Shown piece by piece: positions 6,674-42,346 of a stretch of 64,000 bases of DNA. Both the position numbers and the translations under genes were made by a program. Below the pieces are notes generated by a model that worked only from the letters and a program-made list of their open reading frames with translations, was not told where the DNA came from and did no database searches. Positions within the stretch are counted from its first letter, which is position 1; each line of letters begins with the position of its first letter. Source of the DNA: an uncultured Candidatus Saccharibacteria bacterium (GTDB lineage Bacteria; Patescibacteriota; Minisyncoccia; Phycocordibacterales; UBA12088); assembly GCA_964459635.1 (NCBI GenBank), contig CAYWMQ010000001.1, positions 8,342 through 72,341 of the forward strand. The letters run 5' to 3'.

Positions 6674-6708
6674 AACTCTAAACTCTAAACTCAAAACTCT
6701 AAACTTTG
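6674..6708 (+). repeat. heptanucleotide tandem array (AACTCTA)n, about 5 units
   Basis: aactcta aactcta aactcaa aactcta aactttg, 47 nt upstream of the ABC ATPase ATG. A related array actctaa actctac actatcc lies at 36279-36299 upstream of ATG 36316. Confidence 0.6.
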
Positions 6709-6754: not shown

Positions 6755-7681
6755 ATGGCTGATGCTGCACTTTCACTACGCGACCTGCGCAAGACGTACG
6801 AAAACGGTACGGAGGCGCTGAAGGGTATCACGCTTGCCGTACCGCGCGGTGAGCTCTTTGCATTGCTCGGGCCGAACGGCGCGGGAAAGTCTACGACCAT
6901 AGGCATCATTACCGGGCTCACCAACAAGACAAGCGGCACAGTGGAAGTCTTCGGCACGTCCATCGACGCCGACCACGACAAGGTGAAGTCGTATATCGGG
7001 CTTGTGCCGCAGGAGATGAACTTCAACATCTTTGAGAAGGTCATAGACATCGTATGCACGCAGGGTGGGTACTACGGGCTCCCGCGCAAGCTTGCCGCAG
7101 AACGCGCGGAAAAGTATCTCACCGCGCTTGGTCTCTGGGATAAGCGCAACGACAAGGGGCGCACGCTCTCGGGCGGCATGAAGCGCAGACTCATGATCGC
7201 GCGCGCACTCGTCCATGAGCCGGAGCTTTTGATATTGGATGAGCCGACGGCGGGTGTGGACGTGGAGCTTCGCCGAGGCATGTACGACTTTCTGCGGCGG
7301 CTCATAGCAGAGGGTAAGACCATCATCCTCACCACGCACTACCTGGAGGAAGCGGAAGAGCTCGCGAAGGGGCTCGCTATCATCAACAACGGCACGATAG
7401 TGGCGGAGGGCACGGTAAAGCAGCTCCTTGCAGGTATGGACGCAGCCACGTACGTGCTCGACGTTGCCGGGCCGGTGCGCGCAGACGCTTTGGGTGTGGT
7501 ACGCGCGTATGCACCTCACGTGCGCGACAGCGATACGCTTGAGCTCACTGCGCGTACTGATGCGACACTGGGTCGTGCAGTCGCCCTGCTTGAGCAGGGT
7601 GGCGTGTCGGTAGTGAGCGTGCGACCCAAGGGGAATAGGCTGGAAGAATTATTCGTCAAGTTGACGAATAATTCAAAGTAA
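6755..7681 (+). CDS. ABC transporter ATP-binding protein
   Basis: Walker A GPNGAGKST, ABC signature LSGGMKRRL and Walker B LLILDEPT. It is adjacent to an ABC-2 permease. Confidence 0.9.
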   Translation: MADAALSLRDLRKTYENGTEALKGITLAVPRGELFALLGPNGAGKSTTIGIITGLTNKTSGTVEVFGTSIDADHDKVKSYIGLVPQEMNFNIFEKVIDIVCTQGGYYGLPRKLAAERAEKYLTALGLWDKRNDKGRTLSGGMKRRLMIARALVHEPELLILDEPTAGVDVELRRGMYDFLRRLIAEGKTIILTTHYLEEAEELAKGLAIINNGTIVAEGTVKQLLAGMDAATYVLDVAGPVRADALGVVRAYAPHVRDSDTLELTARTDATLGRAVALLEQGGVSVVSVRPKGNRLEELFVKLTNNSK

Positions 7682-7791
7682 AAAGTCAAAAGTCAAAATG
7701 CAAAAATCCAAGTCAAAATTCAAAAGCTGCGGCACTCGTACCTCTCACTTTTTACTTGCGCTTTTAACTTCTACCTTTTGAATTTTGACTT
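7681..7791 (+). promoter_or_regulatory. AAAAGTC-type heptamer array and a perfect 17-bp inverted repeat between the ABC ATPase and permease genes
   Basis: aaaagtc aaaagtc aaaatgc aaaaatc ... aaaattc at 7681-7728. AAGTCAAAATTCAAAAG (7710-7726) and its exact reverse complement CTTTTGAATTTTGACTT (7775-7791) are separated by 48 nt. The right arm ends 10 nt before the permease ATG 7802 and covers the alternative TTG start 7778. Confidence 0.5.
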
Positions 7792-12929: not shown

Positions 12930-14345
12930 ATGGTCGCACGTATTTTACTGCTTCTTGTGCTGTTTCAGCCTATCTACGTGGCGTTCGGCATGGAGCTCGG
13001 CGATGCAGCAAGCAGTGAGCAGGGAGTAGTGAGCAGTGTCGAAAACGACGCCGAAACCACCAACGAGCAAAGTACTGAGACGAATGCGCAGGATGCTATG
13101 AGCAGTACGGAAAATGCTGCAGATATGGCGAATGTCACTGATGGTGATGGCGCAGACCCGGTAACCACTACGAGTTCGGACAGAGCTGACGCTGGGCCAA
13201 TAGACACCGATGAGTCTGCGACGAATGCGGACGAAGATGCCGCTACGAGCACGGTACCCGATACTCAGTCAGAGATACCTGCCGACGAGGCGAGCAAGGA
13301 AGAGGAAGGGGCGGAAGGCGCTACAAGTACCGATTCAGTGACGAGCGATATAGACGAAAACGCGACCGAGGAGAGCAATGAGGGTACGGAAGCGAGTACG
13401 GAGATTGAAACGCAGACCAACACCGCAAGTAGTAGCGAAGCCTCAGCAACGTCGACAGAGGAAGAAACAATGGAGCCTGTGCTCCCGCCAGCGCCGCTTG
13501 CCCACAGTACCTCATCATACACGTTTGGCGTGGGTGACTGTACGCTCGTAGCAAACGGTGAGTTCTATTGCATCGCTGCGAGCGCCGACCGGGTTGTGAA
13601 TGGCGACCCGCGCGTTTATGCCGAGAAGGACCGTGAGGGTGACAGGGAGATCTACTACTTTGACGGCGTGGAGGTGCATCGCATTACCAACAACGGCTAC
13701 GATGACTTCGCGCCCGTCTTCGACGAGGACACGAAGCGCATCGCGTGGAACGCGATGATACAGGACCGCACACAGGTGATGCTGCACGATATTCAAACGC
13801 AGACCACTCGGCAGGTAACACAGAGCAGTAACACAGCAGGTACACCGCACCTCTTCCACGACTCACTCGTGTGGCAGGAGTGGGTGGACACCAATTGGGA
13901 AGTCTTTCGTGCGGACGCGGATGCGCTCGCGGCGGGGGCTGACGCGTCGGCAGAGCGCCTAACGGACAATGTAGTGCACGATATGTTCCCGCGCGCATAC
14001 GAGGGGCTTATTACATGGCAGCGCGAAAAGGGGCACTCATGGGAGGTGGTAGTGTACGATCTGCGGACACAAAAAGAGCACGCGCTTGAAAAGGAGGAAG
14101 ACACTAAGTACGAAAACCCCCGCTTCGTCCTTTTGTTCGACTCGCGCCATGAAAACGGGGACGTGGAGACGGTGGGCTACGACCTCGACTCGGGTGAAAT
14201 GATGGAGCTCGGCACCAAACCGCGAAGTATCCCCGCACATCCCCAGACGCCGCGCGACGAGACGGAGGATGCACTCCCGAGCGTAAGTCCCATGAATAGC
14301 GTAAAGCCTCTGCGTGATGATGCGGAGGGTACGGATGAGCTATGA
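12930..14345 (+). CDS. secreted acidic protein with a C-terminal PD40/TolB-like beta-propeller repeat region
   Basis: Start chosen at ATG 12930 (MVARILLLLVLFQPIYVAFG, a signal peptide). The track's 12567 extension is Arg-rich and lies over an AT-rich promoter-like island. About 180 aa of the sequence is a D/E/S/T-rich linker. This is followed by REGDREIYYFDGVEVHRITNNGYDDFAPVFDEDTKRIAW-type repeats. The stop overlaps the giant-gene start (ATGA). Confidence 0.55.
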   Translation: MVARILLLLVLFQPIYVAFGMELGDAASSEQGVVSSVENDAETTNEQSTETNAQDAMSSTENAADMANVTDGDGADPVTTTSSDRADAGPIDTDESATNADEDAATSTVPDTQSEIPADEASKEEEGAEGATSTDSVTSDIDENATEESNEGTEASTEIETQTNTASSSEASATSTEEETMEPVLPPAPLAHSTSSYTFGVGDCTLVANGEFYCIAASADRVVNGDPRVYAEKDREGDREIYYFDGVEVHRITNNGYDDFAPVFDEDTKRIAWNAMIQDRTQVMLHDIQTQTTRQVTQSSNTAGTPHLFHDSLVWQEWVDTNWEVFRADADALAAGADASAERLTDNVVHDMFPRAYEGLITWQREKGHSWEVVVYDLRTQKEHALEKEEDTKYENPRFVLLFDSRHENGDVETVGYDLDSGEMMELGTKPRSIPAHPQTPRDETEDALPSVSPMNSVKPLRDDAEGTDEL

Positions 14346-24415: not shown

Positions 24416-24474
24416 GGTGTGTATGAGTGCGCGTACACACGTGGCACAGTGGTATACTTGAGGTGCATCTTGCT

Positions 24475-27400
24475 ATGGGAGAGCGTGCCTATATAAAGAC
24501 AGAGGATGACCCGCTCGCCGGAAAGACGGTCCTTCAGCCGTACGTGTCTGAAGAAGTTCTGCGCGCCTTGTCCGAAGAGGAACTCTTGAACCAAGCGAAC
24601 GCTGCGCGTGTCGCCCTTGGGATGGCGCCATTGTCCGACACAGCGGACGCTGTACAAGCTGATCCACAGCGGAAAGAAGTGATAATTTTGGCTCTCGAAC
24701 GAAATCTTGCTAAGTTTCACGAAACTCAGCAAGGAGAGAGCGGCGATGCCGAGTTTGCCTATGTATACGACCCGCGCAATGGCAGAGGTGAATGGCTTTC
24801 GCGGGAGCAAGCATTGCGTGCAGGTTTCACTGAGCGTGCTGCTTCTGCGGACGATGCAGACGCGCTACGCGCACGTGCCGGAGAGTTGCTTGAACAGGCA
24901 AATCTCCTGAGATCTTCGCTGGTGGGAAACCAGAGCAAACAAAAGGCGCGTCTCGACGTTGCGATCGTGCGCCTTCAGGGGCTTTTGGAGGAAAGGCCAT
25001 CCGATATTGCTGCGCTTGAAGAAAGAGTGCGTGATCTTGAGGAGGAGGTAAGGCGGCAAGAACAGCCGGGCGAAAACCCAACTTCAGACGTACAAAACAA
25101 GAATCCTGCTATACGCGTGAATGAAAGGGACGTTGCGGCTTCTGAGGAAAAAGCTGCGGTTGAGCGACAGGAAGCAGAGCTTCGGGACCTATCAAAAAGA
25201 TTTGAAAGATTTGAAGTAGGCACGGTGTCCGGTGATCAAAACTATTCCCGCGACTATGACCGTGCAGAACATCTACTATTTGAGCTGGAAAAACGTCTGG
25301 AAGGCTCTTCAGAGCAGGTACGGCAAAGTGAGATTCGCCATTTAGAGCGTTTGATTGTAAAGCTTGAAAGAATGCAAGCATCAGCAAAGGCCGGACCTGG
25401 AGCTCCAGAGCCTGCGCCCACCCCTGCCCAAGAAGCGGATCCACACACTGCAGAACGCGCGCGAGCACGTGTATACGAAGAAGTGGCGATGGAAATACTC
25501 GCGCGACTACCCGAGGGCAACGATTGGGAGAAAGCGAAAAAAAGGTTCTTTACCGACGATTGGGAACGAATTACGCGCGAAGTGGGAAGCGAGAGTACCA
25601 CACCTGATTTGAAAAGGCTTATTGTGGAGTACGATCATTTGCGCGCATATGAATGGAACTTAAAAGAGCCGTCTTCGGGCGCAGCCCACACAGAGGCTGC
25701 GGAGCCTACCCCCGCTCCCACACCAGAAGCGGATCCTCACGCGAGCGAGCGTGCAGAGGCGCAGCAGCTCGAAGAAGAGGCGCAGCAGCTCATCGCTACG
25801 CTACCTACGGGCTACGACGCTGCAGATCTGAGCAAGCAGGGTGCGGAAAAAAGTTGGGAAGCGCTTGTGCGGAAAAGTGGCAGTCAAGCAAAGACTCCCG
25901 ACCTTACGGTGCTGCGTGACGCGCTGGAAGAGCTGCGCAGACTTGTTGCACATACGCCACCCAAGGCTCCGGAAAGCCCACATGCCGGATTCAAGATAGA
26001 AAAGGGCGGGAAGGCCGAGATCACGCGTCTGGAAAACTATGTTGCTCTGCGACTTGCTGAACTTCCGGTTACCACTGACGAAGAGAGGGCGCACCATGAC
26101 GTACTTATTGCTGAGTGGAAACATCTAAAAGAGCAGTATGGCTCACATGCAGCCAAACCGGAGTACGAGCACTTAAAAGACTTCGTACTCGCTCATTTGA
26201 AGCTGGGCGGGGTCACGACAGAAGCTGAGCTTGATGCCGTGCTCGGCGTCGTGTCGGACAAGAGCGCACTTGGCACCGAGACCGAGGCTGAGCGCATTAC
26301 AGCGCTCGCACAGGAGCGGGAAGAGAATCACCTTCGGACGCGCGAGGCATATGGCGCAGAAATTCGCGAGGCGCGAGAGAGGTACCAAGGCTACCGTAAG
26401 GAGCTTCTTGATGCGGAGGAAGCGTATCTTAATGCGGTTACGGCCCACCGGGAAGGCACCAAGTACTTTAAGGGGCTGCGCAACAGGCTCTTGCGCAACA
26501 CTGAGGGTCAGGAGCAGATCGCTAAGCTTGAAAGAGATATGCGAGCTGCGCAGGTGGAGTTTGAGACAAAGCTTAATGAAATGAAAGCTGAGCGCGCCGA
26601 ACGCCTGGGACTCACGCATCGCTTGCTTGAAATGAGCTACCAACGGCGGTTGGGTGGTGAGAACGATCCCGCCGCCCATCCGGAGCGCCGCAAAGCGCAG
26701 CGCGAGGCGAAATTTGCTGCGCTCCACGAAGCTCTGGTGCTGCGCTCTACTTCTACGATGCTGGAGCTTGCGCAGGGAATCGGCGGCAAGGAGGAGCTTG
26801 ATATCGCGGTGGCAAGCCGCGTGGGTGTGAGGAGGGAAGACTTGAGTGAAGGAACGCGGGATGCGTCCGGCGTGCTCACGCCCGAGGCACAGGTACGCGC
26901 CACCGCGCGCAAAGAGCACTGGGCGGAGCTTGAAAAAGCGGTCGGCGAACGCAAGGACCCCTCCCGCCTCGTGCGTACGTACAAGGCGGGGATGCGGTAT
27001 TACCGGAGCATACCAAAAGAAAAGCAGCTTGCCATACGTATGCTGGGTGGTGGTGCTGTAGGTCTCGTGGTGGGCGGTGGCGCAGGGGCGGCCGCGTACA
27101 TGGCGGCGCGCGCAGGCGCAGGCTTCTTCGGAGGTGCACTTATGGCGGGCGCCGTGTCAAAAAAACTTTTTGGAGCTACCGAGCGGCACATAGCTCGCAG
27201 TAAAAAGGGTATATTGGAGAGCGACACCATGACTCTTGCGGATAAACAGCACGAGTACATGGCCATGCGCAGGAGAGAGCGCAACATGAAGCGGGGCGCA
27301 ATGGCCCTCACAGGCGCAGCGGCATTTGCTGCCGGCGCATCCGCAGGACAGGCGGTAAACGAGGTTGCCATGAGCGGCCTTTCGCTTGAGTCCATCGGAC

Positions 27401-30312
27401 GTGGCGTGGTACACGGTGTGCCACGCACGGTTGAAGCGTGGAACAACAACGCGCACCGTGCATGGGATTATGCTACCGGGGAGACACCCGTCGCGCCCGC
27501 GGGAGCTGCCGGAGCCGCACCTGTGGAAGCGCCTCGCAGTGGAGCGACGCAAGCACCCGAGACACCACCCGACAGTGCGCATGTCGAAGTGCCGCCGGCC
27601 GGTGCGCCGCGCGCTCAGGCGGAGATCACGGGCCAAGGTGCATCAGTACAGGAGTTTGAGCGTATTCGAAAGGAAGGGTACGTCATTACGGAGGAACATG
27701 GCGCTCGCGTGTACACGCATCCGGATGGCATGCGCTACCATGTCTTTGGGAATGGGAACATGTACGCAGAGACCCTGAATGAGTCACCCTCTGCAGGGGA
27801 TGGGCACGCGGGTATCTCAAATTCACCAAAGGTCACTCTGGACAATCTGCCACCGGAGTTACGTGAGCATTTGGTGCGGCTCGTGCGTGTGCAAGTCTCA
27901 GAAGCTATTGAGGCGTACGGCGGCGGCATTGGTGCGGAAGAGCAAAAGCTGGTCCTGGAGGAGCTCGCCAAGGACGGTCTTACCGCGGACGATGCCTCGC
28001 GTGAGGCGGTGATGGAAGCACTGGCGCGAGTAAAAAACGGCATAGGAGACCGCCCGCGTACGTTTGAGCCCGGGCCTTCACGCGGCGCTGCGCCTGTCGC
28101 GCCCGATGAGGTACGTCCACTCGGCACGCGTACGGCGGCGGCGCCCGAAGCGCTGCATACGCGCGCCGCAGCGTCCAGCGTGCAAGAGGCATACGGTGTT
28201 GCGGATACAACAGGGAGCCGGAGCCAGCGCATCCTCAATAATTTGGAAAGCATGCGGCACACCTTTGCAGGTACGGGTTTCAAGGAAGGGGTAGCAACCA
28301 CAGCCTCACTTGACTACATTCTTAAGCAGGTCGAGTTACCTAAGAGTTCCATTTTCCCGCGCGCGAGCTTCCGCGGCGCATGGGGTGCGGTGGCGGACTT
28401 CCCGGCCTCACGAATATTCGACAGCCGGCCGGGCGCAGAGCTCCTGCTGCCCAACAGACAATGGGTCGCTATGAACCCGACCACAGAGGCTATGACCCGC
28501 AACTTCTTCGAGCAGGTGGATCATCGTGTGACCGGCGGTCGCCTCTTGCATAATGCCGACTACCTACGCGGCCGCAGTCTGGGCGATGTCATGCATGACT
28601 TCGAGCGCATACAGAAGGGGCAGGTACGCGTTGAGGACGTTCTGCGCCAGCGGATGGGGCGTGGTGCGGCTGTTGCAGCGGAGGCCGACACACGCGTACG
28701 CGACACCATGCCGCACGAACAGCCTGCAGCTGCGCGCGTACCGGAGGTGCAAGAGTCGCGTTCGGGCTTTGTGCCGGGGGAGCGCACGGCGGCGGCGAGC
28801 GCCACACTCTTGCGCAAGCTTGATGCGCTCGCCGGCCCGGATGTCTCGCATGTACGCGTGGCGGACCTTCTCGCACGTGAGCCGCAGACCCTCAGTGAGC
28901 AGGTGGCGCGCCAGTATGTTGTTGGCTTCCAAAACAATGGCATTACTGCAGATCCGAACCTGTCATTCAAGGAGTACCTCACACGTGCGGTTGACGAGTA
29001 TCTCGAACGCGGTTATTCGCCGCAAGAGCTTGAAATAGCAATGGACTGGCTTGAGGAGGAGTACGGCAAGGCATCGGCTCCGCGTTCGCGAGCAAAGTAT
29101 GCCGTGTATGATGCATCTGAGCCGGTGCCTTTCCGGCGCGCGGGTATTGAGGCTCCAGGCACGGTGAGTCCCGAGGCTATGCGTGCGTCAGAAGCGCTCA
29201 CGGGCCGATTGCGTGCGCTCGGTTCCGTAGAGCTCGGGCGCGACTCCGTGAGCGACGTGTACGCGGGCGACAACAGGGTGAGCGAGCTACTTGGCTCGAA
29301 GCCGCGCAGTGCGGGGGACTACGTGGCACAACGCTTCGTGCAGCAGATGAAGGCGCAAGGCTTTGTCGCAGATGAGCGTTTGCCCTTTGAGCAGTACGCG
29401 CGTGAGGTTATTGACCAGTATCTGAAAAAAGGAGGCACGGAGAACAACATTGCAATGCTTACCGGTATGTTCGAAGACGAAGAACTCGTGCAGCGCGCTC
29501 TTGCGCGCTCCGCGAGCGAGTCGTATCACGAAGCGGATGAAGCGCGCGAAGATGTGGCATACACACGCGAGCGCGGGAGTCGTCGCTCAGGTGGGCAAAC
29601 GTCGCGGACGGGCGTGCGTGGTACGTACCACGGCGAGGCGGGTCCGTTAGAGGCGGATGGTCGTTTTAAGGTGGAGTTTCGCTCGCGTAACCCGCAAGCT
29701 CCGGAACTGCGCATCAGGTCGGGAGGACGTTATTATACACAAGCAGTTGAACGTGTTGAGGCATCTGCTCGGGGTAGTACTCAGTACAAAGGCTGGCTTG
29801 AGTACCCTGGGTCTGCGCTCGAACTTATGAATAGGGACGCGTCCTTTGCCAAGCACGTGTACGACGAACTGCGTGAAGCGGGTTGGGAGGGTCGTACGGG
29901 CAACCGATCGTCATGGAAAGTCTACCAGCTGCCCGATGCTGAAACACTGGCGCACACGTCTCCCCGTGAGCTTCTGGTGAGTGCGGAGGTGCAGGAACTG
30001 GAGGGTATGCGGAAGCAGGCACGTTATCTGGAGCACCACGATAGGGATCTGTACGGCAGATCACGCATTAACATGGGTCGCGATGGTAAGCTTCGCGGCA
30101 GCGGCTCGCTCTTTGAAGAGCGCGAGGGGTCGCGCAACAGAGGCCGGATTGACTCGCATGAGCGACAAGCGCGGCGTGAAACAGACGCTCGCAGTAGGCG
30201 GGAGTTTAGCCGCAAGATGGACAAGATACGCCGCGATACTGACAAGTTGCGGAGCGATCGCAAGACGATGCGCGACATACAGCGCATGAAGCAAGATCAG
30301 CGCAGACATTAA
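24475..30312 (+). CDS. large coiled-coil protein with a central glycine-zipper membrane segment and an Arg-rich C-terminus (1945 aa from this start)
   Basis: ATG 24475 with GAGGTG 9 nt upstream and TATACT at 24453-24458; the track's GTG 24427 would lie upstream of that -10. The N-terminal ~850 aa are E/R/K/A-rich coiled-coil. TM segments GGGAVGLVVGGGAGAAAYMAARAGAGFFGGALMAGAV and AMALTGAAAFAAGASAG. Two ~75-aa internal repeats. The C-terminus reads RRETDARSRREFSRKMDKIRRDTDKLRSDRK. Confidence 0.65.
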   Translation: MGERAYIKTEDDPLAGKTVLQPYVSEEVLRALSEEELLNQANAARVALGMAPLSDTADAVQADPQRKEVIILALERNLAKFHETQQGESGDAEFAYVYDPRNGRGEWLSREQALRAGFTERAASADDADALRARAGELLEQANLLRSSLVGNQSKQKARLDVAIVRLQGLLEERPSDIAALEERVRDLEEEVRRQEQPGENPTSDVQNKNPAIRVNERDVAASEEKAAVERQEAELRDLSKRFERFEVGTVSGDQNYSRDYDRAEHLLFELEKRLEGSSEQVRQSEIRHLERLIVKLERMQASAKAGPGAPEPAPTPAQEADPHTAERARARVYEEVAMEILARLPEGNDWEKAKKRFFTDDWERITREVGSESTTPDLKRLIVEYDHLRAYEWNLKEPSSGAAHTEAAEPTPAPTPEADPHASERAEAQQLEEEAQQLIATLPTGYDAADLSKQGAEKSWEALVRKSGSQAKTPDLTVLRDALEELRRLVAHTPPKAPESPHAGFKIEKGGKAEITRLENYVALRLAELPVTTDEERAHHDVLIAEWKHLKEQYGSHAAKPEYEHLKDFVLAHLKLGGVTTEAELDAVLGVVSDKSALGTETEAERITALAQEREENHLRTREAYGAEIREARERYQGYRKELLDAEEAYLNAVTAHREGTKYFKGLRNRLLRNTEGQEQIAKLERDMRAAQVEFETKLNEMKAERAERLGLTHRLLEMSYQRRLGGENDPAAHPERRKAQREAKFAALHEALVLRSTSTMLELAQGIGGKEELDIAVASRVGVRREDLSEGTRDASGVLTPEAQVRATARKEHWAELEKAVGERKDPSRLVRTYKAGMRYYRSIPKEKQLAIRMLGGGAVGLVVGGGAGAAAYMAARAGAGFFGGALMAGAVSKKLFGATERHIARSKKGILESDTMTLADKQHEYMAMRRRERNMKRGAMALTGAAAFAAGASAGQAVNEVAMSGLSLESIGRGVVHGVPRTVEAWNNNAHRAWDYATGETPVAPAGAAGAAPVEAPRSGATQAPETPPDSAHVEVPPAGAPRAQAEITGQGASVQEFERIRKEGYVITEEHGARVYTHPDGMRYHVFGNGNMYAETLNESPSAGDGHAGISNSPKVTLDNLPPELREHLVRLVRVQVSEAIEAYGGGIGAEEQKLVLEELAKDGLTADDASREAVMEALARVKNGIGDRPRTFEPGPSRGAAPVAPDEVRPLGTRTAAAPEALHTRAAASSVQEAYGVADTTGSRSQRILNNLESMRHTFAGTGFKEGVATTASLDYILKQVELPKSSIFPRASFRGAWGAVADFPASRIFDSRPGAELLLPNRQWVAMNPTTEAMTRNFFEQVDHRVTGGRLLHNADYLRGRSLGDVMHDFERIQKGQVRVEDVLRQRMGRGAAVAAEADTRVRDTMPHEQPAAARVPEVQESRSGFVPGERTAAASATLLRKLDALAGPDVSHVRVADLLAREPQTLSEQVARQYVVGFQNNGITADPNLSFKEYLTRAVDEYLERGYSPQELEIAMDWLEEEYGKASAPRSRAKYAVYDASEPVPFRRAGIEAPGTVSPEAMRASEALTGRLRALGSVELGRDSVSDVYAGDNRVSELLGSKPRSAGDYVAQRFVQQMKAQGFVADERLPFEQYAREVIDQYLKKGGTENNIAMLTGMFEDEELVQRALARSASESYHEADEAREDVAYTRERGSRRSGGQTSRTGVRGTYHGEAGPLEADGRFKVEFRSRNPQAPELRIRSGGRYYTQAVERVEASARGSTQYKGWLEYPGSALELMNRDASFAKHVYDELREAGWEGRTGNRSSWKVYQLPDAETLAHTSPRELLVSAEVQELEGMRKQARYLEHHDRDLYGRSRINMGRDGKLRGSGSLFEEREGSRNRGRIDSHERQARRETDARSRREFSRKMDKIRRDTDKLRSDRKTMRDIQRMKQDQRRH

Positions 30313-32315: not shown

Positions 32316-32412
32316 TGCGCGTCAATTTGGCGCGCGTACACAGGGTATGGTCTGCTCGCGCTATCCACGGTCTCCGCTAACGTTGCGCTTGTACTTGGGG
32401 TACACTGAAGCT

Positions 32413-33699
32413 ATGCGAGTGGCATTCGCGCGCTTTTTTCCGTACGTCTACGCGGCGTGTATTGTCGTGCTGGCTGCCGCGCCGCTCGTGTGGGCATATG
32501 CACAGGAAGCTTTCGATACCACGGAGCCTGAGCGTCCACCGGCCGCTATAGAAAGCTCGGCGTCATTTGCGGTGACGCCCGTGGTGTCCAACGAGAAAGC
32601 AAAAGCGCGCGACATCATCAAGAAAGAGCTTTTGCTCGAAAATAAGAGTGCCGAGCGCATAGGGCTGCGCGCCAAAGTGGAAAACGTAGACCCTGGCGGC
32701 GGCGCGGTGTCGTTCGTATCGCCGGGTGAAGCGGATCTGGCTCATTCGCTCGCGAACTGGGTGGAAATAACACGCGGCGTCGTAGAGCTTGAGCCCGGTG
32801 AGAGTCGCAAAGTGCCGTACCTCATACATGTGAACGTTGTGGCGGAGCCGGGGACCTACTATGCGCGCATCGCATTTACGGACGGCTCACCTGAGTATGA
32901 GACTGACAAACGACCTGATGGAACCAGCCTTCTTTTGACGGTAGAGGTGGCTGATGACGCACGCGAGCGCCTGCAGCTGGCCGGTTTTGTTGCGTCCCGG
33001 TCGCTTGTGTTCGGCGCCGACGCGGCGTTCACGTACCGCCTTGAAAATGTGGGCAACAGAGACCTGGAGCCGCGCGGCACTATCCGCATATTCAACAGAC
33101 GCGGCGAGGAGGTCGGGTCTGTGCCGCTCAACGCGGACGGCGTGTCGCTCTCGCCCGCGAGCAAGCAGCAGCTCGCCACGGCATGGAACGCGAGCGGCCG
33201 TTTCGGCAAGTACAAGGCATTTTTGGACCTGGAGTATGGCACGGAGCAGCTCGCGAGTGTGCAGGACACCGTCTACTTTTGGGTGTTCCCATGGAAAGAA
33301 ATTCTCGCGTCCATGTTCGGCGTGCTCGTGCTTGCGGTGGTGGGCACCTATGTCATCCACATGCGCACCATGGCGCGGCCGGCGCATGTGTATGCGCCCG
33401 TGTATCCCGAAGCACAGTCTCGCATGTCACCTAAGTCCGTTCTGATGCCGAGCGGTGCTCGCAGCCACGGCGATTTCGCAGATCAGCCTGTGGCTTCTGC
33501 GGCGCCGGTGCGCGCTACGGCTCAGGCTGCACCTGCTCGCGTCGTAGCTCAGCCTATGCCGGCGGCTCCTCCCGCGGTTGTCCTGGCGCGCAAGGAAGCG
33601 GCATCGCCCGGCCCGGTGGTCTCGCTCGCGCCTCGCAGTCGAGGTGGCTCTCATGTAGATGCTCAAGCTCACACCGTTCAACTCAAACCCCGCCGGTAG
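32413..33699 (+). CDS. membrane-anchored surface protein, paralog 1 of 3
   Basis: ATG 32413 gives the signal peptide MRVAFARFFPYVYAACIVVLAAAPLVWAYAQE. A ~300-aa beta-rich ectodomain carries the motif EPGTYYARIAF. A C-terminal TM helix ILASMFGVLVLAVVGTYVIHM is followed by a Pro/Ala-rich cytoplasmic tail. The architecture is reminiscent of DUF916/DUF3324 cell-surface proteins; this is inference only. Confidence 0.55.
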   Translation: MRVAFARFFPYVYAACIVVLAAAPLVWAYAQEAFDTTEPERPPAAIESSASFAVTPVVSNEKAKARDIIKKELLLENKSAERIGLRAKVENVDPGGGAVSFVSPGEADLAHSLANWVEITRGVVELEPGESRKVPYLIHVNVVAEPGTYYARIAFTDGSPEYETDKRPDGTSLLLTVEVADDARERLQLAGFVASRSLVFGADAAFTYRLENVGNRDLEPRGTIRIFNRRGEEVGSVPLNADGVSLSPASKQQLATAWNASGRFGKYKAFLDLEYGTEQLASVQDTVYFWVFPWKEILASMFGVLVLAVVGTYVIHMRTMARPAHVYAPVYPEAQSRMSPKSVLMPSGARSHGDFADQPVASAAPVRATAQAAPARVVAQPMPAAPPAVVLARKEAASPGPVVSLAPRSRGGSHVDAQAHTVQLKPRR

Positions 33700-35092
33700 G
33701 GTGGCGCTACAAAGTGCCTCGCGTGCACCCACAACAGGGGCGCGGTTTTTCTTGCTTCTTATACTTTCTACTTTCTACTTCCTACTTGCTACTTTCTACC
33801 TTCTACTTTCTACTCCCGTCTTTGCCCAAGACGCCCTCACGCTCACCATCACACCGCCCTTGATACAGGTGAACTTGGATCCCGGGCAAACATGGACGAG
33901 CAGCATTCGAGTAGTGAACGGCAACCGCTACGAGGTTACGGTATACGCAGACCCCGTGCCGTTTACGGCAGAAGGTGAGGGTGGCCGCCCGCGCATAGTC
34001 TTGTCGACCAAAGCAGCGGACAATGCCACGGCAAACGGCGTAGCGGCGTGGCTGGACGTGCCGCAGGAACCTATCATCATCGGCCCCGAGCAGACGCACG
34101 AGGTACCGTTCACCATACGCGTGCCGGCAGACGCGCCGCCGGGCGGACATTATGCCGCGGTCCTGATAGGCAACAAGCCGGGTGCGGGCGCGGCGGAAGG
34201 CGGCACGGTCACGGTCTCAAGCTCTATTGCGTCATTGCTCCTGCTCACCGTTTCCGGCAATATCGACGAGCGCGGGCGTATACGCGACTTTGTGACGGAG
34301 CGGCATCTCTACGATAAGCCTGAGGCGCGCTTTTCGCTGCGCTTTGAGAACCAAGGCAATGTGCACATCCAGCCGCAGGGGGATATAGTCATTTACAACC
34401 ACTTCGGTAAAGAGCGCGGGAGAGTCACCCTTGGCCAAGGGGGCAACTTCGGCAATGTGCTTCCCGGAAGTATCCGTCAGTTCAGCTTCGAATGGATCGC
34501 GGACGCGGGAGGCTGGGATATCGGCCGGTACCGCGCAGAGGCAACGTTTGCATATGGTAAAGACAGCAAACGGTTCGCCAGTGCGACAACATACTTCTGG
34601 GTGCTTCCACTTGGGCGTATCGCGCTGCTTGCAGGCGGCTTGGCGCTGTTCATATGGTTTATCGGGTGGAGCTTGCGGCTTTACGTACGCCGAGCGTTGG
34701 CTCTGGAAGCACAGCGTATCGCTAGCACCGATCCTCCGCTTCAAGCCCGTGCGGCAGTGCGCCCCGCGGAGCCCGTTCAGGAGCATGTGGCACCACAGAT
34801 CGTTTCACCACGTACGTACTTGCGGCCTATCGAGCGAGGTATCGTCGATCTGCGCGCCCTCGCGCGTCCCGTTGATTCCGAATCCGGTCCGCAAGCGGGG
34901 CATGTGCTCGTCAGCCGTTTGCACCGCACGCGCGCGTTTCTACGCAGGTACCGTGTCTTTTTCATCTTCCTTGCCGTCGTAGGGGCAGCGCTTCTGATGG
35001 GGCGGACCTTGCTGCGCGATGTGCTCACGTACGAGCGCGCATACGAAGTGGAGGTGCTGGATCCGGAAGCACCGAAGTCAGACGCACCGTAA
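33659..35092 (+). CDS. membrane-anchored surface protein, paralog 2 of 3
   Basis: Phe/Leu-rich signal peptide ...FFLLLILSTFYFLLATFYLLLSTPVFA-QD. The real start is possibly TTG 33752. Motif PPGGHYAAVLI. C-terminal TM LLAGGLALFIWFIGWSL followed by YVRRAL. Its 5' end overlaps the tail of paralog 1 in another frame. Confidence 0.55.
   Translation: MLKLTPFNSNPAGRVALQSASRAPTTGARFFLLLILSTFYFLLATFYLLLSTPVFAQDALTLTITPPLIQVNLDPGQTWTSSIRVVNGNRYEVTVYADPVPFTAEGEGGRPRIVLSTKAADNATANGVAAWLDVPQEPIIIGPEQTHEVPFTIRVPADAPPGGHYAAVLIGNKPGAGAAEGGTVTVSSSIASLLLLTVSGNIDERGRIRDFVTERHLYDKPEARFSLRFENQGNVHIQPQGDIVIYNHFGKERGRVTLGQGGNFGNVLPGSIRQFSFEWIADAGGWDIGRYRAEATFAYGKDSKRFASATTYFWVLPLGRIALLAGGLALFIWFIGWSLRLYVRRALALEAQRIASTDPPLQARAAVRPAEPVQEHVAPQIVSPRTYLRPIERGIVDLRALARPVDSESGPQAGHVLVSRLHRTRAFLRRYRVFFIFLAVVGAALLMGRTLLRDVLTYERAYEVEVLDPEAPKSDAP
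33762..33817 (+). repeat. heptanucleotide tandem repeat (TACTTTC)n, 8 units (4 perfect), inside the signal-peptide coding region of paralog 2
   Basis: tactttc tactttc tacttcc tacttgc tactttc taccttc tactttc tactccc. The unit is 7 nt, so it is not a multiple of 3. Confidence 0.75.
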
Positions 35093-36200
35093 CACGTGCG
35101 TAGCACGTGTTGTGCAAGAGTGCTCCATCCTTTGGGGACGTTGTGGCGTAGACGGCATTGTGCGATGCAGGGGTGATCTCGCGCGGGCAGTGTCACTCGC
35201 TCGCGTACCGCTTCAAGCACAGGGCCTGGGCATAAAAGTGCAGCCGTCAACCATTGAAGAGCGTCTTGATCCGGGCGGCTCGGTGGAGGGTGTGCTCACT
35301 ATCACCAACGAGAGCGATGCTCCACAGGTCTACAAGATAGGTACGCGCGACGTAACAGGCATGGAGCTCTCCGGCAGACCGAACTTTTCGGATAAACCGG
35401 GCGGTGAAGACCCGTATGCTGCGTCTGCGTGGGTACGCCCGCAGAAAGACAGCGTTCCTCTTGCGGCATGGGAGGCGGTAGAGGTGCCGTACCGTATTGA
35501 GGTACCGACTGACGCGAGTCCCGGCGGGTACTTTGCGGCTATCTTCGTGACGCGCGAGGCAGATGGTATTGCCGAGTCGGGAGCGAGTGTTGGCTTTCAC
35601 GTGGCGGCGCTCGTAAACCTACGCGTCAACGGCGAGGTGCGTGAGGACTTGGTGCTGAAGGAGTTTAGTACCGGGCGCGCTGTACATACCGACCTCGAGG
35701 TGGAATTTACCGCTCGCATGGAAAACACCGGCACCGTACATGAGCGGCCCGTGGGTATCATTACCATTGCGGACATGTTCGGCAAAGAAGCGGGGAAGGT
35801 GATGCTTAACGAAAACGAGGGGGCGATACTGCCACGTTCCGAGCGTCTATTTGATACTACGTGGAAGGGAGAGGGCTTCCACGTGGGCCGGTACACGGCA
35901 CTTCTCAGCGTGACATATGGGAATGACGCGAAGCAAACGGTCACACGTTCGACTACGTTTTGGATTGTACCGCTCCGGGACACGGCAGCCTTTGCGGGAG
36001 CTATTGTAGTGGCACTTGCGCTCATCTTGCTTGGTATGCGGGCCTATGTACGCCGGCAGCTTCGCCGTGCGGGCTACGATGCACAGACCGTACGTATCCG
36101 TGAGCAGAGCTCTTTTGCGGCAAAGCTTAGTCGTGTGCTTGTCTGGCTCGCGGCCCTACTCGCACTCATGGTCGTTGCAGTGGTGGTGTTCTTCGCGTAG
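35019..36200 (+). CDS. membrane-anchored surface protein, paralog 3 of 3 (start uncertain)
   Basis: Shares the motif SPGGYFAAIFV and the C-terminal TM AFAGAIVVALALILLGM followed by YVRRQL, plus a second C-terminal TM. No convincing signal peptide lies upstream of the conserved ...PLQAQG position. The track start overlaps paralog 2 by 73 nt. Confidence 0.45.
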   Translation: MCSRTSAHTKWRCWIRKHRSQTHRNTCVARVVQECSILWGRCGVDGIVRCRGDLARAVSLARVPLQAQGLGIKVQPSTIEERLDPGGSVEGVLTITNESDAPQVYKIGTRDVTGMELSGRPNFSDKPGGEDPYAASAWVRPQKDSVPLAAWEAVEVPYRIEVPTDASPGGYFAAIFVTREADGIAESGASVGFHVAALVNLRVNGEVREDLVLKEFSTGRAVHTDLEVEFTARMENTGTVHERPVGIITIADMFGKEAGKVMLNENEGAILPRSERLFDTTWKGEGFHVGRYTALLSVTYGNDAKQTVTRSTTFWIVPLRDTAAFAGAIVVALALILLGMRAYVRRQLRRAGYDAQTVRIREQSSFAAKLSRVLVWLAALLALMVVAVVVFFA

Positions 36201-36675: not shown

Positions 36676-36833
36676 AAACGAAAGGCACCTGCCGATAGCA
36701 GGAAAGTTAAAAGTGCATTACACGCGTTAACGTCGGCGGTCGTCTAACTGGACCTACACGGTCTAAGGCATTTTGGTGGCGTGAAGTCATGGCAAACCGT
36801 CTATGGCTTTCACTCCCGTGTGCTGTTACGTAG

Positions 36834-36861
36834 CGTGTTACGTAGCATGCTACGTAACACG
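36834..36861. promoter_or_regulatory. perfect 28-bp palindrome CGTGTTACGTAGCATGCTACGTAACACG
   Basis: Self-complementary across 28 nt. It has a flanking direct repeat GTTACGTAG (36825-36833 and 36837-36845) and lies in a ~500-bp region with no credible ORF. Confidence 0.5.
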
Positions 36862-36929
36862 CTGTGCGGTAGGTGTTCAGCCGCCCGATTACGCAGCCAA
36901 GCTGTGCGAGTTCTGTTCGGGCGCGCCCC

Positions 36930-37049: not shown

Positions 37050-37094
37050 CCTGCCTGCCGGCAGGCAGGTACATTTTAACTTTTGACTTTTGTT
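37050..37094 (+). terminator. perfect 20-bp GC palindrome CCTGCCTGCCGGCAGGCAGG followed by T-rich heptamers (ttttaac ttttgac ttttgtt)
   Basis: Terminator-like: a GC hairpin followed by TACATTTTAACTTTTGACTTTTGTT. It could end an unannotated transcript from 36676-37050, or act as an operator upstream of the FGE gene. Confidence 0.4.
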
Positions 37095-38124: not shown

Positions 38125-40020
38125 ATGGCAGGCCGTCACTTTTCGTTGCGCTTAGGCAGTCGACAGCCTTTTTTGTCTTTTGTCTTTTGTCTTTTGTATC
38201 TCGTGCTCCTGTTCTCTTTTCTCTATACGTCGCACTCGGCATTTGCCACAAGCTATCTCTCTCGCATTTCAGACCTTATCTCCACCAGTGCGCCGGGCGC
38301 GGCTGCGAACCACACGCTTCGTTTCACTATAGCTCAAGCGATACCGCCCAACGGTGCCATTGAAGTGCTTTTCAACCGCGGGGGTTTCACTATCCCCGGG
38401 GCACTTAATTTTACCGATGTGGACCTTGGTTTTTCGGCAGTATCCGGGGGCCCCTATACCGAGCGTCCGCTATCTTCCGTGCAGACGGGCGGTACGGACC
38501 GGGTGGTGGTCACAAGCGGTAGCGCGGGCAAGATACGGTTCGACCTCAACACGTCGGTAGGTATTGCGGCAGGCAGCGAGTTGCGCATCAAGATAGGCAC
38601 GAACGCCACGTTCGGTACGGTGGGTGATCAGCGCATTCTGCTCCCTACGGCCACCACATCTCACCCGGTGACTGTGTACACATACGATGCGGCTGATGCC
38701 GAGCTTGACTACGGCGAAACGCGTATAGCGGTAGTGGAGCAAGTGACAGCGGGCCCGGTAGATACCGATGACGTCACGCCGCCCGTGGTGCTTGCGGCAT
38801 ACCCTTCCGGGCTGCTTCAAGTGGGAACGAGGGCTGTACAGATGTGGGTAGTTACCGATGAGCTTACGGCGTGCAGATGGGCGACCTCAAGTATGGCGTA
38901 CGCAAGCATGCCGTACTCTTTCACCTCCACAAGCACATTCGGGCTTGCGTACTGGAATTTTGCCACATACGGCGGACTTGAAGATGATACTGAGTACAAT
39001 GCGTACATCCGCTGCGTTGACTTTCGTTCTAACGAAATAGATCCCGATTACATCCTTTCCTTTACCGTAGGTATTACGCCCGGTAGTGCAAGCTCAACAG
39101 CCACCACGACCGGCACAGGTACCGGCACAGGTACGGGCACATCGACCGGCACATCGACCGGCACCGGTACCGGCACCGGTACCGGAGGAGGACCGTCGGG
39201 TTCCGGCTCGGGCAATGGCCCCAATGGCGGCGATGGGGCAGGGTCGGGCGGGGGTGGGTCCGGGCAGTCGGGCTCCGGTGACAAGCTGCCCCAGGCGGAT
39301 GTGCAGGTGTCGGGATGGGCGTACCCGGGCTCTACGGTAACACTGCTTCGCGACGGGGCGATAGTGGCTACGCAGGCCGCGGGAGGCGGCGGCGAGTTCC
39401 TGCACCTTACGGAAGGTATCGACCGCGGCATATACTCCTTTGCCGTGTATGCGACCGACTCAAAGGGAACACGTAGTGCGACATACGCCACTACGCTCGG
39501 CCTGCGTTCGAATACGCTCAACAAGCTTGCGAACATTATGCTCCCGCCCACCGTCTCGGTCGTGGCCGCTTCCGTAGACCCGGGTAAGCCTGTCGAGGTG
39601 AGCGGTTACTCCGCGCCAAGTGCCAAAGTCACCGCATGGCTGCGGCCCAGGCTTGCGGTGGTATCGGCGGCGGACGTGGTGGCGAGTACCACCGCGCTCG
39701 CGAACGGCATATACACGCTCAGCATTCCGACCACGGGGCTCACACAGGGTACGTACGAGCTCGTTGCGCAAGCTGCTCATGCGAACGGCACCGTGCAGAG
39801 CGACAAGAGCGCGCGGCTTGCCGTAGGACTTGGCGTTCAAGTGACACAAAACACGGGCTGCAAAGACGGCGACCTCAACTGCGACGGCTCAGTGAACCTC
39901 ATAGACTTTTCGATCCTTCTTTTCAACTGGAACACCGCGAGCACCGTTGCAGACATAAACAAAGACGGGACCGTCTCGCTGCCGGACTTCTCGATACTGC
40001 TCTTCAATTGGACGGGGTAG
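38125..40020 (+). CDS. secreted surface protein with a Thr/Gly-rich linker and a C-terminal type-I dockerin
   Basis: ATG 38125 gives MAGRHFSLRLGSRQPFLSFVFCLLYLVLLFSFLYTSHSAFA. Beta-rich domains, then the linker TTGTGTGTGTGTSTGTSTGTGTGTGTGGGPSGSGSGNGPNGGDGAGSGGGGSG, then more Ig-like domains. The final 55 aa, DLNCDGSVNLIDFSILLFNWN and DINKDGTVSLPDFSILLFNWTG, form two dockerin calcium-binding repeats. Confidence 0.7.
   Translation: MAGRHFSLRLGSRQPFLSFVFCLLYLVLLFSFLYTSHSAFATSYLSRISDLISTSAPGAAANHTLRFTIAQAIPPNGAIEVLFNRGGFTIPGALNFTDVDLGFSAVSGGPYTERPLSSVQTGGTDRVVVTSGSAGKIRFDLNTSVGIAAGSELRIKIGTNATFGTVGDQRILLPTATTSHPVTVYTYDAADAELDYGETRIAVVEQVTAGPVDTDDVTPPVVLAAYPSGLLQVGTRAVQMWVVTDELTACRWATSSMAYASMPYSFTSTSTFGLAYWNFATYGGLEDDTEYNAYIRCVDFRSNEIDPDYILSFTVGITPGSASSTATTTGTGTGTGTGTSTGTSTGTGTGTGTGGGPSGSGSGNGPNGGDGAGSGGGGSGQSGSGDKLPQADVQVSGWAYPGSTVTLLRDGAIVATQAAGGGGEFLHLTEGIDRGIYSFAVYATDSKGTRSATYATTLGLRSNTLNKLANIMLPPTVSVVAASVDPGKPVEVSGYSAPSAKVTAWLRPRLAVVSAADVVASTTALANGIYTLSIPTTGLTQGTYELVAQAAHANGTVQSDKSARLAVGLGVQVTQNTGCKDGDLNCDGSVNLIDFSILLFNWNTASTVADINKDGTVSLPDFSILLFNWTG
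38168..38197 (+). repeat. heptanucleotide tandem repeat (CTTTTGT)3 plus a variant unit, inside the signal-peptide coding region of the dockerin protein
   Basis: cttttttgt cttttgt cttttgt cttttgt; rotated, this is (TTTTGTC)n, matching the intergenic TTTTGAC arrays. Covers codons 15-25 of the gene. Confidence 0.75.
39109..39192 (+). repeat. 12-nt tandem repeat (ACCGGCACAGGT-like, 7 units) encoding the TGTG linker
   Basis: accggcacaggt x2, acgggcacatcg, accggcacatcg, accggcaccggt x2, accggaggagga. In-frame microsatellite. Confidence 0.7.
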
Positions 40021-40810: not shown

Positions 40811-42346
40811 ATGCTCGCGTCGAATATACACCGTGTTGTTCATAAAAATGCCGTAGCGCAGGCGTATACCCGCGTCAAAGTTTTTGTGGCGCTTGTTTTT
40901 TTTCCGTTTTTCTTGTTTCTTGTTTCTTGTTTCTTGTTTTCTACCTCCGCCCACGCCGCCTCCTACTCCTTTTCGCCCGCGTCCGGCTCCTACGAGGTCG
41001 GCAAAACGTTCACCGTGTCCGTCATGGTGGACCCGGGCACCGATGCGGTGAACACGGGCGATGGAGCGCTCTCGTATGACACCGCCAAGCTCACCGCAGT
41101 GTCGGTGTCCAAAGAGGGTTCCGTTTTCAATCTTTGGGTGACCGAGCCCGCGCTTAACGCGGGAGCGGGCACGGTGACTTTTGCGGGTGGTGCCACCACG
41201 CCCTTTTCAGGCTCTAAGCGAGTCGTCACGGTTAGCTTCAAAGCGAAGGCGGAGGGCGCCGCCACGGTAAAACTTGATAAGGGTACGCTGCTGGCAGGCG
41301 CCGGTCAGAACGTGCTTGCCGGATCCCTGCCCACCGCTTCTTTCACCATCACTCCCGCTGCCGCCAAGCCGCCGGTGGAGGAAAAGCCGGACACCCCTGC
41401 ACCCGCAAAGCCGGCACGTGCGGTGAATATCCCCGTACCTGATGCTCCTGTTATCAAGAGTTCCACGCACAAAGAAGAGGGCACCTGGTACAACCAGAAC
41501 ACCGTGAAGCTCACGTGGGACCTACCCTACGGTGTGACCGGGCTCAAGAAGCTGTGGAGCGAGAAAGCCGACGCAGAGCCCACCGAAGTGCATGAGCCGC
41601 CCATACCCGACTGGACAAAGGAGAACGTGGCCGACGGTGTGTGGTATTTCCATGCCGCGTATAAGAACAGGGGCGGATGGGGAAGCTCCACCGCGTTCAA
41701 GGTGCAGATAGATACTACGCCACCGAAAGAGTTTACCGTGACGGGCACCGGAGGAGACCTTGCCGCGCAGCTTTCATGGGCTGCTGAGGATGAACTCTCC
41801 GGTGTGGTCGTATACCGCATAGCCGTAGACGACGGCCGGCCGCGGGATGTACAGCCCTCCGAGCTTATAGCCGGCGGATATACGCTCACCAACATAGATC
41901 CTGGCGAGCATAGCATTATCGTGACGGCTGTCGATGCTGCGGGCAACGAGCGGGAAGCTCGCACTAAGGTCACCGCGACAGGTGAGCTCCCTCCCGCAGA
42001 AGGAGCGCAGGAAGTTGAAACATCCGGCTTCGGAGCCATCTACTGGGTATCACTCATCTTCATGGCGCTTCTTGCAGGTGCGGTAACGCTCCTTGTGCTG
42101 GAGCGGCGCAAGCATCATGAGGAGCGCGAGCTCATCAAGCGTGAGGCGATGGAGGCGGGCGACAAGCTCATCAACGTATTCGGCGTGCTGCGCGACGAGA
42201 TAGAAGAGCGCGTGCTTGACCTCTCGCACAAGCCCAACATGACCGACAACGAGCGCGAGATATTGGAAGGCCTTAAAGATGCCCTGGATGTATCCGAAGA
42301 GCTTATCGACAAGGAGATAGAAGACATTCGCAAGCTCCTCAAGTAG
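40811..42346 (+). CDS. membrane-anchored protein with an N-terminal cohesin-like domain, Pro-rich linker, FN3/Ig-like domains, a C-terminal TM and a cytoplasmic coiled-coil tail
   Basis: ATG 40811 gives the signal peptide MLASNIHRVVHKNAVAQAYTRVKVFVALVFFPFFLFLVSCFLFSTSAHA. Cohesin-like beta-sandwich pattern SGSYEVGKTFTVSVMVDPGTDAVNTGDGALSYDTAKLTAVSV...GTVTFAGG...VVTVSFKAKAEGAATVKL. Pro-rich linker EEKPDTPAPAKP. TM AIYWVSLIFMALLAGAVTLLVL. The cohesin assignment comes from pattern recognition only. Confidence 0.55.
   Translation: MLASNIHRVVHKNAVAQAYTRVKVFVALVFFPFFLFLVSCFLFSTSAHAASYSFSPASGSYEVGKTFTVSVMVDPGTDAVNTGDGALSYDTAKLTAVSVSKEGSVFNLWVTEPALNAGAGTVTFAGGATTPFSGSKRVVTVSFKAKAEGAATVKLDKGTLLAGAGQNVLAGSLPTASFTITPAAAKPPVEEKPDTPAPAKPARAVNIPVPDAPVIKSSTHKEEGTWYNQNTVKLTWDLPYGVTGLKKLWSEKADAEPTEVHEPPIPDWTKENVADGVWYFHAAYKNRGGWGSSTAFKVQIDTTPPKEFTVTGTGGDLAAQLSWAAEDELSGVVVYRIAVDDGRPRDVQPSELIAGGYTLTNIDPGEHSIIVTAVDAAGNEREARTKVTATGELPPAEGAQEVETSGFGAIYWVSLIFMALLAGAVTLLVLERRKHHEERELIKREAMEAGDKLINVFGVLRDEIEERVLDLSHKPNMTDNEREILEGLKDALDVSEELIDKEIEDIRKLLK
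40912..40939 (+). repeat. perfect heptanucleotide tandem repeat (CTTGTTT)4, inside the signal-peptide coding region of the cohesin-like protein
   Basis: cttgttt x4 at 40912-40939, with one more unit at 40893-40899. Covers codons about 34-43. Confidence 0.8.

Follow-up and report, generated by a model that had tools for sequence, protein, structure and literature searches.

A TACTTTC array in the signal-peptide region of a Patescibacteria surface-protein gene: phase-variation switch or stable coding repeat?

Patescibacteria, most of which are uncultured, are tiny bacteria with an episymbiotic life, and this biology depends on surface proteins; to our knowledge, very little is known about how these proteins are regulated or diversified. 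The locus described here raises this question in a concrete form. In a DNA stretch of 64,000 nucleotides (nt) from an uncultured environmental member of this group (assembly GCA_964459635.1, contig CAYWMQ010000001.1, positions 8,342 to 72,341), called the window in what follows, the surface-protein gene g2 carries a tandem array of the heptanucleotide TACTTTC in the region that encodes its signal peptide. The first-pass annotation of the window had taken this array for a candidate phase-variation switch, that is, for a repeat whose gain or loss of units would shift the reading frame directly after the start of the gene. Is the array such a switch, or is it coding sequence with the history of a repeat? 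With a probability that we put somewhat above even, it is a slippage-born coding microsatellite that forms the core of a Sec-type (general secretory) signal peptide and that has since degenerated and become stable over the timescale of strains; we infer from the evidence below that slippage generated it and that its mutability is low at present.

The array (as shown in Table 1) is a tandem repeat of period 7, and its eight units read in order TACTTTC, TACTTTC, TACTTCC, TACTTGC, TACTTTC, TACCTTC, TACTTTC and TACTCCC. That is to say, it is imperfect: four of the eight units are exact TACTTTC, and the other four carry one or two substitutions, every one of them T→C or T→G. The period and the exact coordinates that were first given for it, as (TACTTTC)8 at 33762-33817, are therefore right, but the eight units are not identical. 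Tandem Repeats Finder (TRF) reports it at 33762-33814 with period 7, 7.6 copies, 89% matches and a score of 85, and the longest perfect period-7 run in it is 19 nt (2.7 units, 33762-33780). When the window was scanned for regions with at least 17 of 21 matches at lag 7, six were found in the real sequence and none in 30 shuffles that preserved its dinucleotides; no array of period 4, 5, 8, 10, 11, 13 or 16 was found in the real window.

As regards the encoded peptide, the degenerate units bring about one synonymous change, S→A, F→L and F→P, the last of these at the boundary between the hydrophobic h-region and the c-region of the signal peptide, which fits selection on the peptide and not on the purity of the repeat. 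In the window's own genes, CTA makes up 2% of the Leu codons, TCT 8% of the Ser codons and ACT 8% of the Thr codons, and the array uses these rarest codons of the genome (CTA twice, TCT twice, ACT three times). Moreover, its GC content is 38%, compared with 59% in the non-repetitive signal peptide of the upstream paralog g1. Therefore, the nucleotide sequence of the array reflects the history of a repeat, and not codon preference.

The genes g1, g2 and g3 are homologous to one another (blastp E 1e-22 to 1e-44), and PF06030, the peptidoglycan-binding domain of WxL-interacting proteins, is matched by 11 of the 39 homologs that were aligned, with a best E-value of 1.6e-6, which bears out the earlier naming of g2 as "surface paralog 2"; g2 itself has no Pfam match, and no PDB relative of its protein was found by sequence. 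A search of 5.8 billion proteins found 480 homologs of g2, and those with names come from metagenome-assembled genomes of Paceibacteria, Parcubacteria and Minisyncoccia.

By inspection, the N-terminus of g2 has the features of a Sec-type signal peptide (signal peptidase I), namely a basic n-region, which is long and contains R14, R22 and R29, an h-region from F30 to L50 that is mostly encoded by the array, and small residues at −1 and −3. The h-region of such a peptide is taken to span about 10-20 residues. V-F-A stands at −3 to −1, P53 precedes it, and cleavage is predicted before Q57, between VFA and QDALTLTITPPL. The array corresponds to residues 35-53 (ILSTFYFLLATFYLLLSTP) and is the sole hydrophobic stretch ahead of the conserved cleavage region. 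In all 120 of the homologs listed, the start of the mature protein (A-x-A before the cleavage point and Q/E...TPPLFQ after it) directly follows one hydrophobic segment, and it aligns with QDALTLTITPPL. Since the mature N-terminus of the homologs directly follows one such segment, the array is a Sec-type h-region and not upstream non-coding DNA, so that its assignment to the signal-peptide coding region, at codons 35-53 of the open reading frame (ORF) 33659-35092, is confirmed.

A position of the array upstream of the true start, in a promoter or a 5′-untranslated region (5′-UTR), was also considered, and it is ruled out by the sole hydrophobic segment together with the conserved features of the ATG. 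At this ATG (33659), g2 and the end of g1 overlap by 41 nt, an overlap that the ortholog L004 has too; in addition, ahead of the signal-peptide core many members of the family have a common N-terminal motif, MLYNSHHVA or MLFSYHHVAK, for which g2 has MLKLTPFNSNPAGRVA. Because both the overlap and the motif are conserved, the start at 33659 is supported. The overlap common to g2 and L004 also suggests translational coupling with the upstream paralog. No Rfam family, promoter or terminator was found at the array site. Unlike g1 and g2, g3 lacks a convincing hydrophobic core for a signal peptide (VQECSILWGRCGVDGIVRCRGDLARAVSLARVPLQAQG), and alternative frames within 35112-35220 offer none.

How does the array vary among relatives? 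At the same site and in frame, L004 (61% amino acid identity) carries a perfect (TACTTTC)×3.9 and L005 (54%) five imperfect TACTTTC units, and L006 (43%) carries, also in frame, about ten units of another T-rich heptamer. Since orthologs have TACTTTC at 8, 3.9 and 5 copies, the copy number has changed, and slippage has acted, over evolutionary time. Related strains with a non-repetitive sequence for the same peptide, which the first-pass annotation had named as evidence that would refute a switch, did not appear among these orthologs, of which L004 and L005 keep the unit.

The comparison of strains for differences in unit number, which had likewise been proposed, gave no length change among close relatives in assembled consensus sequence. 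The exact g2 protein occurs on 12 contigs, which stem from at least three sequencing runs plus one NCBI assembly (the neighbouring g1 likewise lies on 12 contigs, with the same size distribution), and among 15 billion proteins the g2 cluster at 90% identity contains no second member. Over 13.2 kb, one of the contigs that were fetched matches the window without any difference. The strain L089, which comes from another run, differs from the window by 57 substitutions and one indel over 2,719 nt (97.9% nucleotide identity, 2.1% diverged), and the array at 40909 is exactly the same in it. The peptide encoded by the array is the same within each of the pairs P0129/P0224 and P0146/P0227, and the arrays are identical within each of the pairs L122/L200 (95% flank identity) and L101/L108. 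Altogether, no change of array length was seen in six comparisons of close relatives, among them pairs that had diverged by 2% and 5%. The metagenome contigs of JGI were also searched with the exact flanks for variants in unit count and gave no match, the lineage being absent from that collection.

A repeat of this kind could become a signal-peptide core in a simple way. A T-rich unit of 7 nt that is read in triplets runs through all three frames every 21 nt, and a TACTTTC repeat therefore encodes the identical, stop-free hydrophobic heptad YFLLSTF in every frame; since each frame gives the same stop-free heptad, the repeat makes a workable h-region. Probably, replication slippage in the ancestry of g2 created the array and altered its length, and in this genome of 59% GC five T→C or T→G substitutions later interrupted it, with the peptide still hydrophobic. 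Over the time that separates strains and populations, the array would now behave as ordinary coding sequence and be stable, and copy-number change would be confined to the timescale of species and to net in-frame steps.

The preference for seven bases extends beyond g2. The spectrum of repeats was taken from 84 sources with 1.30 Mb in total (the window, L004-L006 and L007-L086; 80 GTDB loci plus others), all of them Patescibacteria with 41-61% GC, and the TRF spectrum was made non-redundant. Among the non-triplet arrays, period 7 was found 25 times and period 14 15 times, and the comparison periods 2-10 times each (period 8, 2; period 10, 6; period 11, 10; period 13, 3; period 16 also within this range). 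In the 72 nt that encode the signal peptide, 60 g2-family genes gave ten strong runs of period 7 and six of period 14, and the remaining non-triplet periods from 2 to 16 occurred in none of the 60. The C-terminal membrane anchors of the same 60 genes contained no run of period 7 or 14, though they are richer in T (39% vs 34%). In the window and in these loci, the arrays of period 7/14, which account for nearly all non-triplet ones, lie almost always in signal-peptide or intergenic DNA and never in the C-terminal anchors of the same proteins. Their units differ widely from gene to gene, and the cohesin family, which is unrelated to g2, likewise has signal-peptide cores of the LSTFY(F/L)LL type. 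In Patescibacteria, the 5′ ends of secreted-protein genes tend, across the lineage, to be made up of T-rich 7-nt arrays, a tendency that is apparently undescribed; a literature search for phase variation or such repeats in this bacterial radiation found nothing relevant.

The TACTTTC unit itself was followed in metagenomes. A scan of metagenome contigs for (TACTTTC)×3 found at least 120 loci (L090-L209), on contigs of 26-71% GC. Among the loci listed, 70 arrays have 3 perfect copies and 35 have 4; lengths of 5, 6, 7, 8, 9 and 10 copies occur 4, 4, 4, 3, 2 and 2 times, and 13 and 17 copies once each. The tracts reach 17 perfect copies, or 38 degenerate units, and many of them stand at contig ends; about 100 of these 120 loci lie outside recognisable signal-peptide contexts. 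The 20 arrays among them in clear signal-peptide contexts all have 3-4 units, 14 of them exactly four (LLSTFYFLLS). A length bound set by the h-region fits this difference, signal-peptide arrays always having 3-4 units and those in other contexts up to 17. The 20 signal-peptide contexts have unrelated flanks and only the array in common, which rules out a mobile cassette that would carry its flanks along. TACTTTC as a sequence-specific motif is ruled out as well, because viral contigs gave 13 hits for it compared with 12, 11 and 44 for three composition-matched heptamers.

Relatives with lower GC have a second, A-rich heptamer array immediately upstream of the T-rich one. It is roughly the reverse complement of the latter, and the two fold into long hairpins that span the translation start; the basic, polar n-region is often encoded by this A-rich arm. 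Compared with shuffles, these hairpins have z values of −4.9 (L006), −5.3 (L024), −5.8 (L035), −6.8 (L031), −2.9 (L018) and −2.4 (L019). A hairpin partner was also sought for the g2 array and excluded: no inverted partner of the window's arrays lies within 400 nt, and the g2 array region folds no better than shuffles (z −1.6; −0.06 and +1.1 for the other two arrays).

Whole signal peptides also appear to turn over rapidly: three pairs of proteins at 90% identity or more have near-identical mature domains with unrelated signal peptides (P0068/P0121, P0141/P0225 and P0150/P0241). In the first pair (L087 1-1870 and L088 1-1730), the DNA is 98.7% identical along a stretch of 1,323 nt that begins at the signal-peptide cleavage region and stops 16 nt short of the stop codon; the signal peptides and the regions upstream and downstream are unrelated. 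The arrays of L087 have units of 8 nt (CTGTTCTA), with A-rich 8-mers complementary to them upstream, and those of L088 have units of 7 nt (ATTCTCC). Replacement of a 5′ module was considered for this pair and is not upheld, because the similarity also ends at the stop and a transfer of the gene core between contexts explains it equally well.

A working contingency locus at g2 appears rather unlikely. In such a locus, slipped-strand mispairing at a useful rate would leave g2 OFF (−1 or +2 units) or give it an alternative start (+1 or −2 units), and, by analogy with the CTCTT repeats of opa, this would create surface heterogeneity in an episymbiotic bacterium. The layout speaks for it: the unit of 7 nt is not divisible by 3 and stands 102 nt into the coding sequence (CDS) of a surface protein, inside a cluster of three paralogs. 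The simulated frames behave as needed, in that a change of ±3 units keeps the frame, and −1 or +2 units leave the mature domain without a start codon. With +1 or −2 units, an upstream GTG with a plausible basic n-region comes into frame, and because of this alternative only one shifted phase is clearly OFF, a caveat to the frameshift design described by the first-pass annotation. The ortholog copy numbers also differ, purer arrays stand at this position in two further surface-protein genes of the window, (TACTTTC) tracts elsewhere reach 17 pure copies, and the lineage-wide choice of period 7 over triplets in signal peptides would be expected if frameshift potential were selected. A switch is thus mechanically possible as far as the simulated frames go, but all hypermutability tests that were run turned out negative. 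The working cut-off for phase-variable repeats with units of 4-5 nt or longer is at least five identical units (PMC6321876), and documented heptanucleotide switches have 6-38 copies (PMC2651432; also PMC12721329), whereas the g2 array falls below this level with 2.7 uninterrupted units and four of its eight units mutated, and the arrays of the window reach at most 4.4 uninterrupted units. The six close-relative comparisons without length change point the same way. Each of the 14 g2-family homologs with an array keeps its frame, having an ATG upstream and a basic n-region, whereas N. gonorrhoeae isolates have on average 1.7 opa copies in frame, fewer than the 3.4 expected at one in three (PMC13183285). 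Finally, the intergenic arrays share the period-7 bias without any reading frame at stake.

A role of the nucleotide sequence itself is, in our estimate, quite improbable. The array would here act as a pyrimidine-rich rare-codon tract of the mRNA, which may slow early elongation or aid the membrane targeting of the transcript, or as a hairpin arm as in the 5′-UTR of hmw. Such a role would agree with an array made of the genome's rarest codons, with a TACTTTC unit that is kept across deep divergence, and with the complementary arrays of lower-GC relatives that fold over the start region (z −4.9 to −6.8 in L006, L024, L035 and L031), and hmw offers a precedent that joins a heptameric repeat, a hairpin and RNase III (PMC12721329). 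It disagrees with the window, in which no complementary arm lies within 400 nt, the array folds no better than shuffles and no Rfam family was found. The units differ between genes and TACTTTC is no commoner than composition-matched controls, which makes a sequence-specific binding factor unlikely; and since the signal peptide of g1 is GC-rich and non-repetitive, rare codons are no general requirement for export here. Hardly credible at all is a chance low-complexity stretch that follows from the Phe/Leu-rich composition of signal peptides. Signal-peptide cores are generally T-rich at second codon positions, which would help it, but chance and composition are ruled out by the shuffles (0 of 30 vs six regions), the anchor control in 60 genes and the TRF score of 85, and the orthologs carry the identical TACTTTC unit.

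Some observations weigh against a slippage-born coding microsatellite that is now simply stable, although this is the reading that we prefer. The rare-codon unit is kept in three lineages at 54-61% identity, which implies continuing slippage turnover or selection at the nucleotide level; since it persists at such a mature-protein identity, the tract is not a simple relic. Triplet periods are absent from the signal peptides and the non-triplet periods 7 and 14 dominate there, which neutral tolerance alone would not predict, as a CDS should tolerate triplets better. Furthermore, the evidence for stability is assembled consensus throughout, in which minority length variants in reads are invisible.

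A broader proposal, which is held tentatively and seems possible though not probable, is that T-rich non-triplet arrays (7-nt, occasionally 8-nt) are a general evolvable 5′ module of secreted and surface-protein genes in Patescibacteria (Paceibacteria). In lower-GC members, the module may include pairing with A-rich arrays that encode the basic n-region, with a hairpin over the start codon. Since the array is stop-free and hydrophobic in all three frames, it could serve as a frame adaptor by which signal peptides are created, resized and swapped, and such arrays may provide low-rate on/off or level switching too. If this is true, it would be a contingency or regulatory system undescribed so far in the candidate phyla radiation. 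A lineage-wide 7-base rule, if true, would give a concrete handle on the evolution, and possibly the regulation, of surface proteins in this radiation, and a simple route by which signal peptides arise de novo out of repeats. An early non-triplet repeat alone is insufficient to call phase variation, and the tract of g2 is degenerate and looks stable.

The window contains six period-7 arrays, whose positions are collected in Table 1 with those of the genes and of the hairpins in relatives. The array at 40909 is the purest in the window. The one at 6674-6705 has stop codons in every frame of both strands, and the units at 7675 (AAAGTCA) and 37074 (TTTTGAC), which lie 29 kb apart, are reverse complements of each other. 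One further period-7 array lies in polar coding sequence, at 13011. Inside the dockerin-domain gene, at 39107-39185, there is an in-frame repeat of 12 nt and 36 nt (ACCGGCACAGGT×6.4), an ordinary coding repeat of triplet period. The gene order FGE-sulfatase-like, dockerin, HSP20, cohesin is also found in L006. Three fetched Logan contigs (L001, L002 and L003) all stop at about 36861, beside a 12-nt tandem repeat (TGTTACGTAGCA×2.8, 36824-36863), and this common end suggests an assembly break induced by the repeat or by polymorphism. The window also has three giant ORFs at 14342-24415, 24427-30312 and 43278-62726, which encode 3357, 1961 and 6482 amino acids (aa), and the first of them carries DUF7483 according to the Logan gene calls.

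Table 1. Positions of the g2 array, its gene and neighbours, the other period-7 arrays of the window and the hairpin regions in relatives (positions are those of the window unless a contig is named)
Feature	Position	Strand	Description	Basis
Heptanucleotide array of g2	33762..33817	+	8 units (4 exact TACTTTC); encodes ILSTFYFLLATFYLLLSTP, read from 33761	
g2 CDS	33659..35092	+	477 aa, WxLIP-like surface protein, C-terminal membrane anchor	
Signal peptide of g2	33659..33826	+	Sec-type, 56 aa, predicted	By inspection; mature N-terminus conserved in 120 homologs
g1	32347..33699	+	Upstream paralog, 450 aa as called; signal peptide non-repetitive, 59% GC	
g3	35112..36200	+	Downstream paralog, 362 aa as called, GTG start	
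(TTTTGTC)×3.9 array	38171..38197	+	Perfect; signal-peptide h-region of dockerin-domain protein (ATG 38125 to 40020)	
(TTTCTTG)×4.4 array	40909..40939	+	Perfect; signal-peptide h-region of cohesin-domain protein (ATG 40811 to 42346)	
(AACTCTA)×4.6 array	6674..6705	.	Intergenic, about 50 nt upstream of ABC-transporter ATPase gene	
(AAAGTCA)×7.6 array	7675..7726	.	Imperfect; between ABC ATPase gene and next ORF, directly after palindrome	
(TTTTGAC)×2.7 array	37074..37092	.	Short; upstream of FGE-sulfatase-like gene, directly after GC-rich palindrome	
Hairpin region	L006 9985-10135			
Hairpin region	L024 4625-4740			
Hairpin region	L031 5650-5800			
Hairpin region	L035 9885-10070			
Hairpin region	L018 9895-10010			
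Hairpin region	L019 9860-9995			

Among known systems, one of the closest is opa in Neisseria, where CTCTT repeats switch expression and thereby give surface heterogeneity. As in opa, the hydrophobic part of a surface protein's signal peptide is encoded by a pyrimidine-rich non-triplet repeat, the protein belongs to a multi-paralog family, and gain or loss of units in the g2 array would shift the frame of the mature protein. Unlike opa, whose unit has 5 nt and whose copies are mostly out of frame, g2 has a unit of 7 nt in an interrupted and short tract, the array-bearing homologs are all in frame, and close relatives show no length polymorphism; the host is an uncultured environmental Patescibacteria bacterium, and that of opa is a mucosal pathogen.

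The hmw1A and hmw2A genes of H. influenzae carry (5′-ATCTTTC)n in the 5′-UTR, in 11-38 copies (PMC2651432, PMC12721329), and this repeat forms a hairpin with a purine-rich arm and tunes the expression level through RNA structure and RNase III cleavage (PMC12721329). This, too, is a T/C-rich heptanucleotide, at the 5′ end of an adhesin gene, ATCTTTC and TACTTTC differing only at their first two bases, and its pairing with a purine-rich arm is similar to that of the A-rich and T-rich arrays in the lower-GC relatives of g2. The hmw repeat lies in an untranslated leader, whereas the g2 array is translated, is a degenerate tract of eight units and lacks a complementary arm within the window. What the g2 array shares with ordinary coding microsatellites and low-complexity signal peptides is a repeat probably derived from slippage, which is tolerated in a weakly constrained hydrophobic segment and whose length is bounded by the needs of the h-region. 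A triplet period is normal for coding microsatellites, whereas the period here is 7, and it is dominant across the lineage in coding and intergenic DNA alike.

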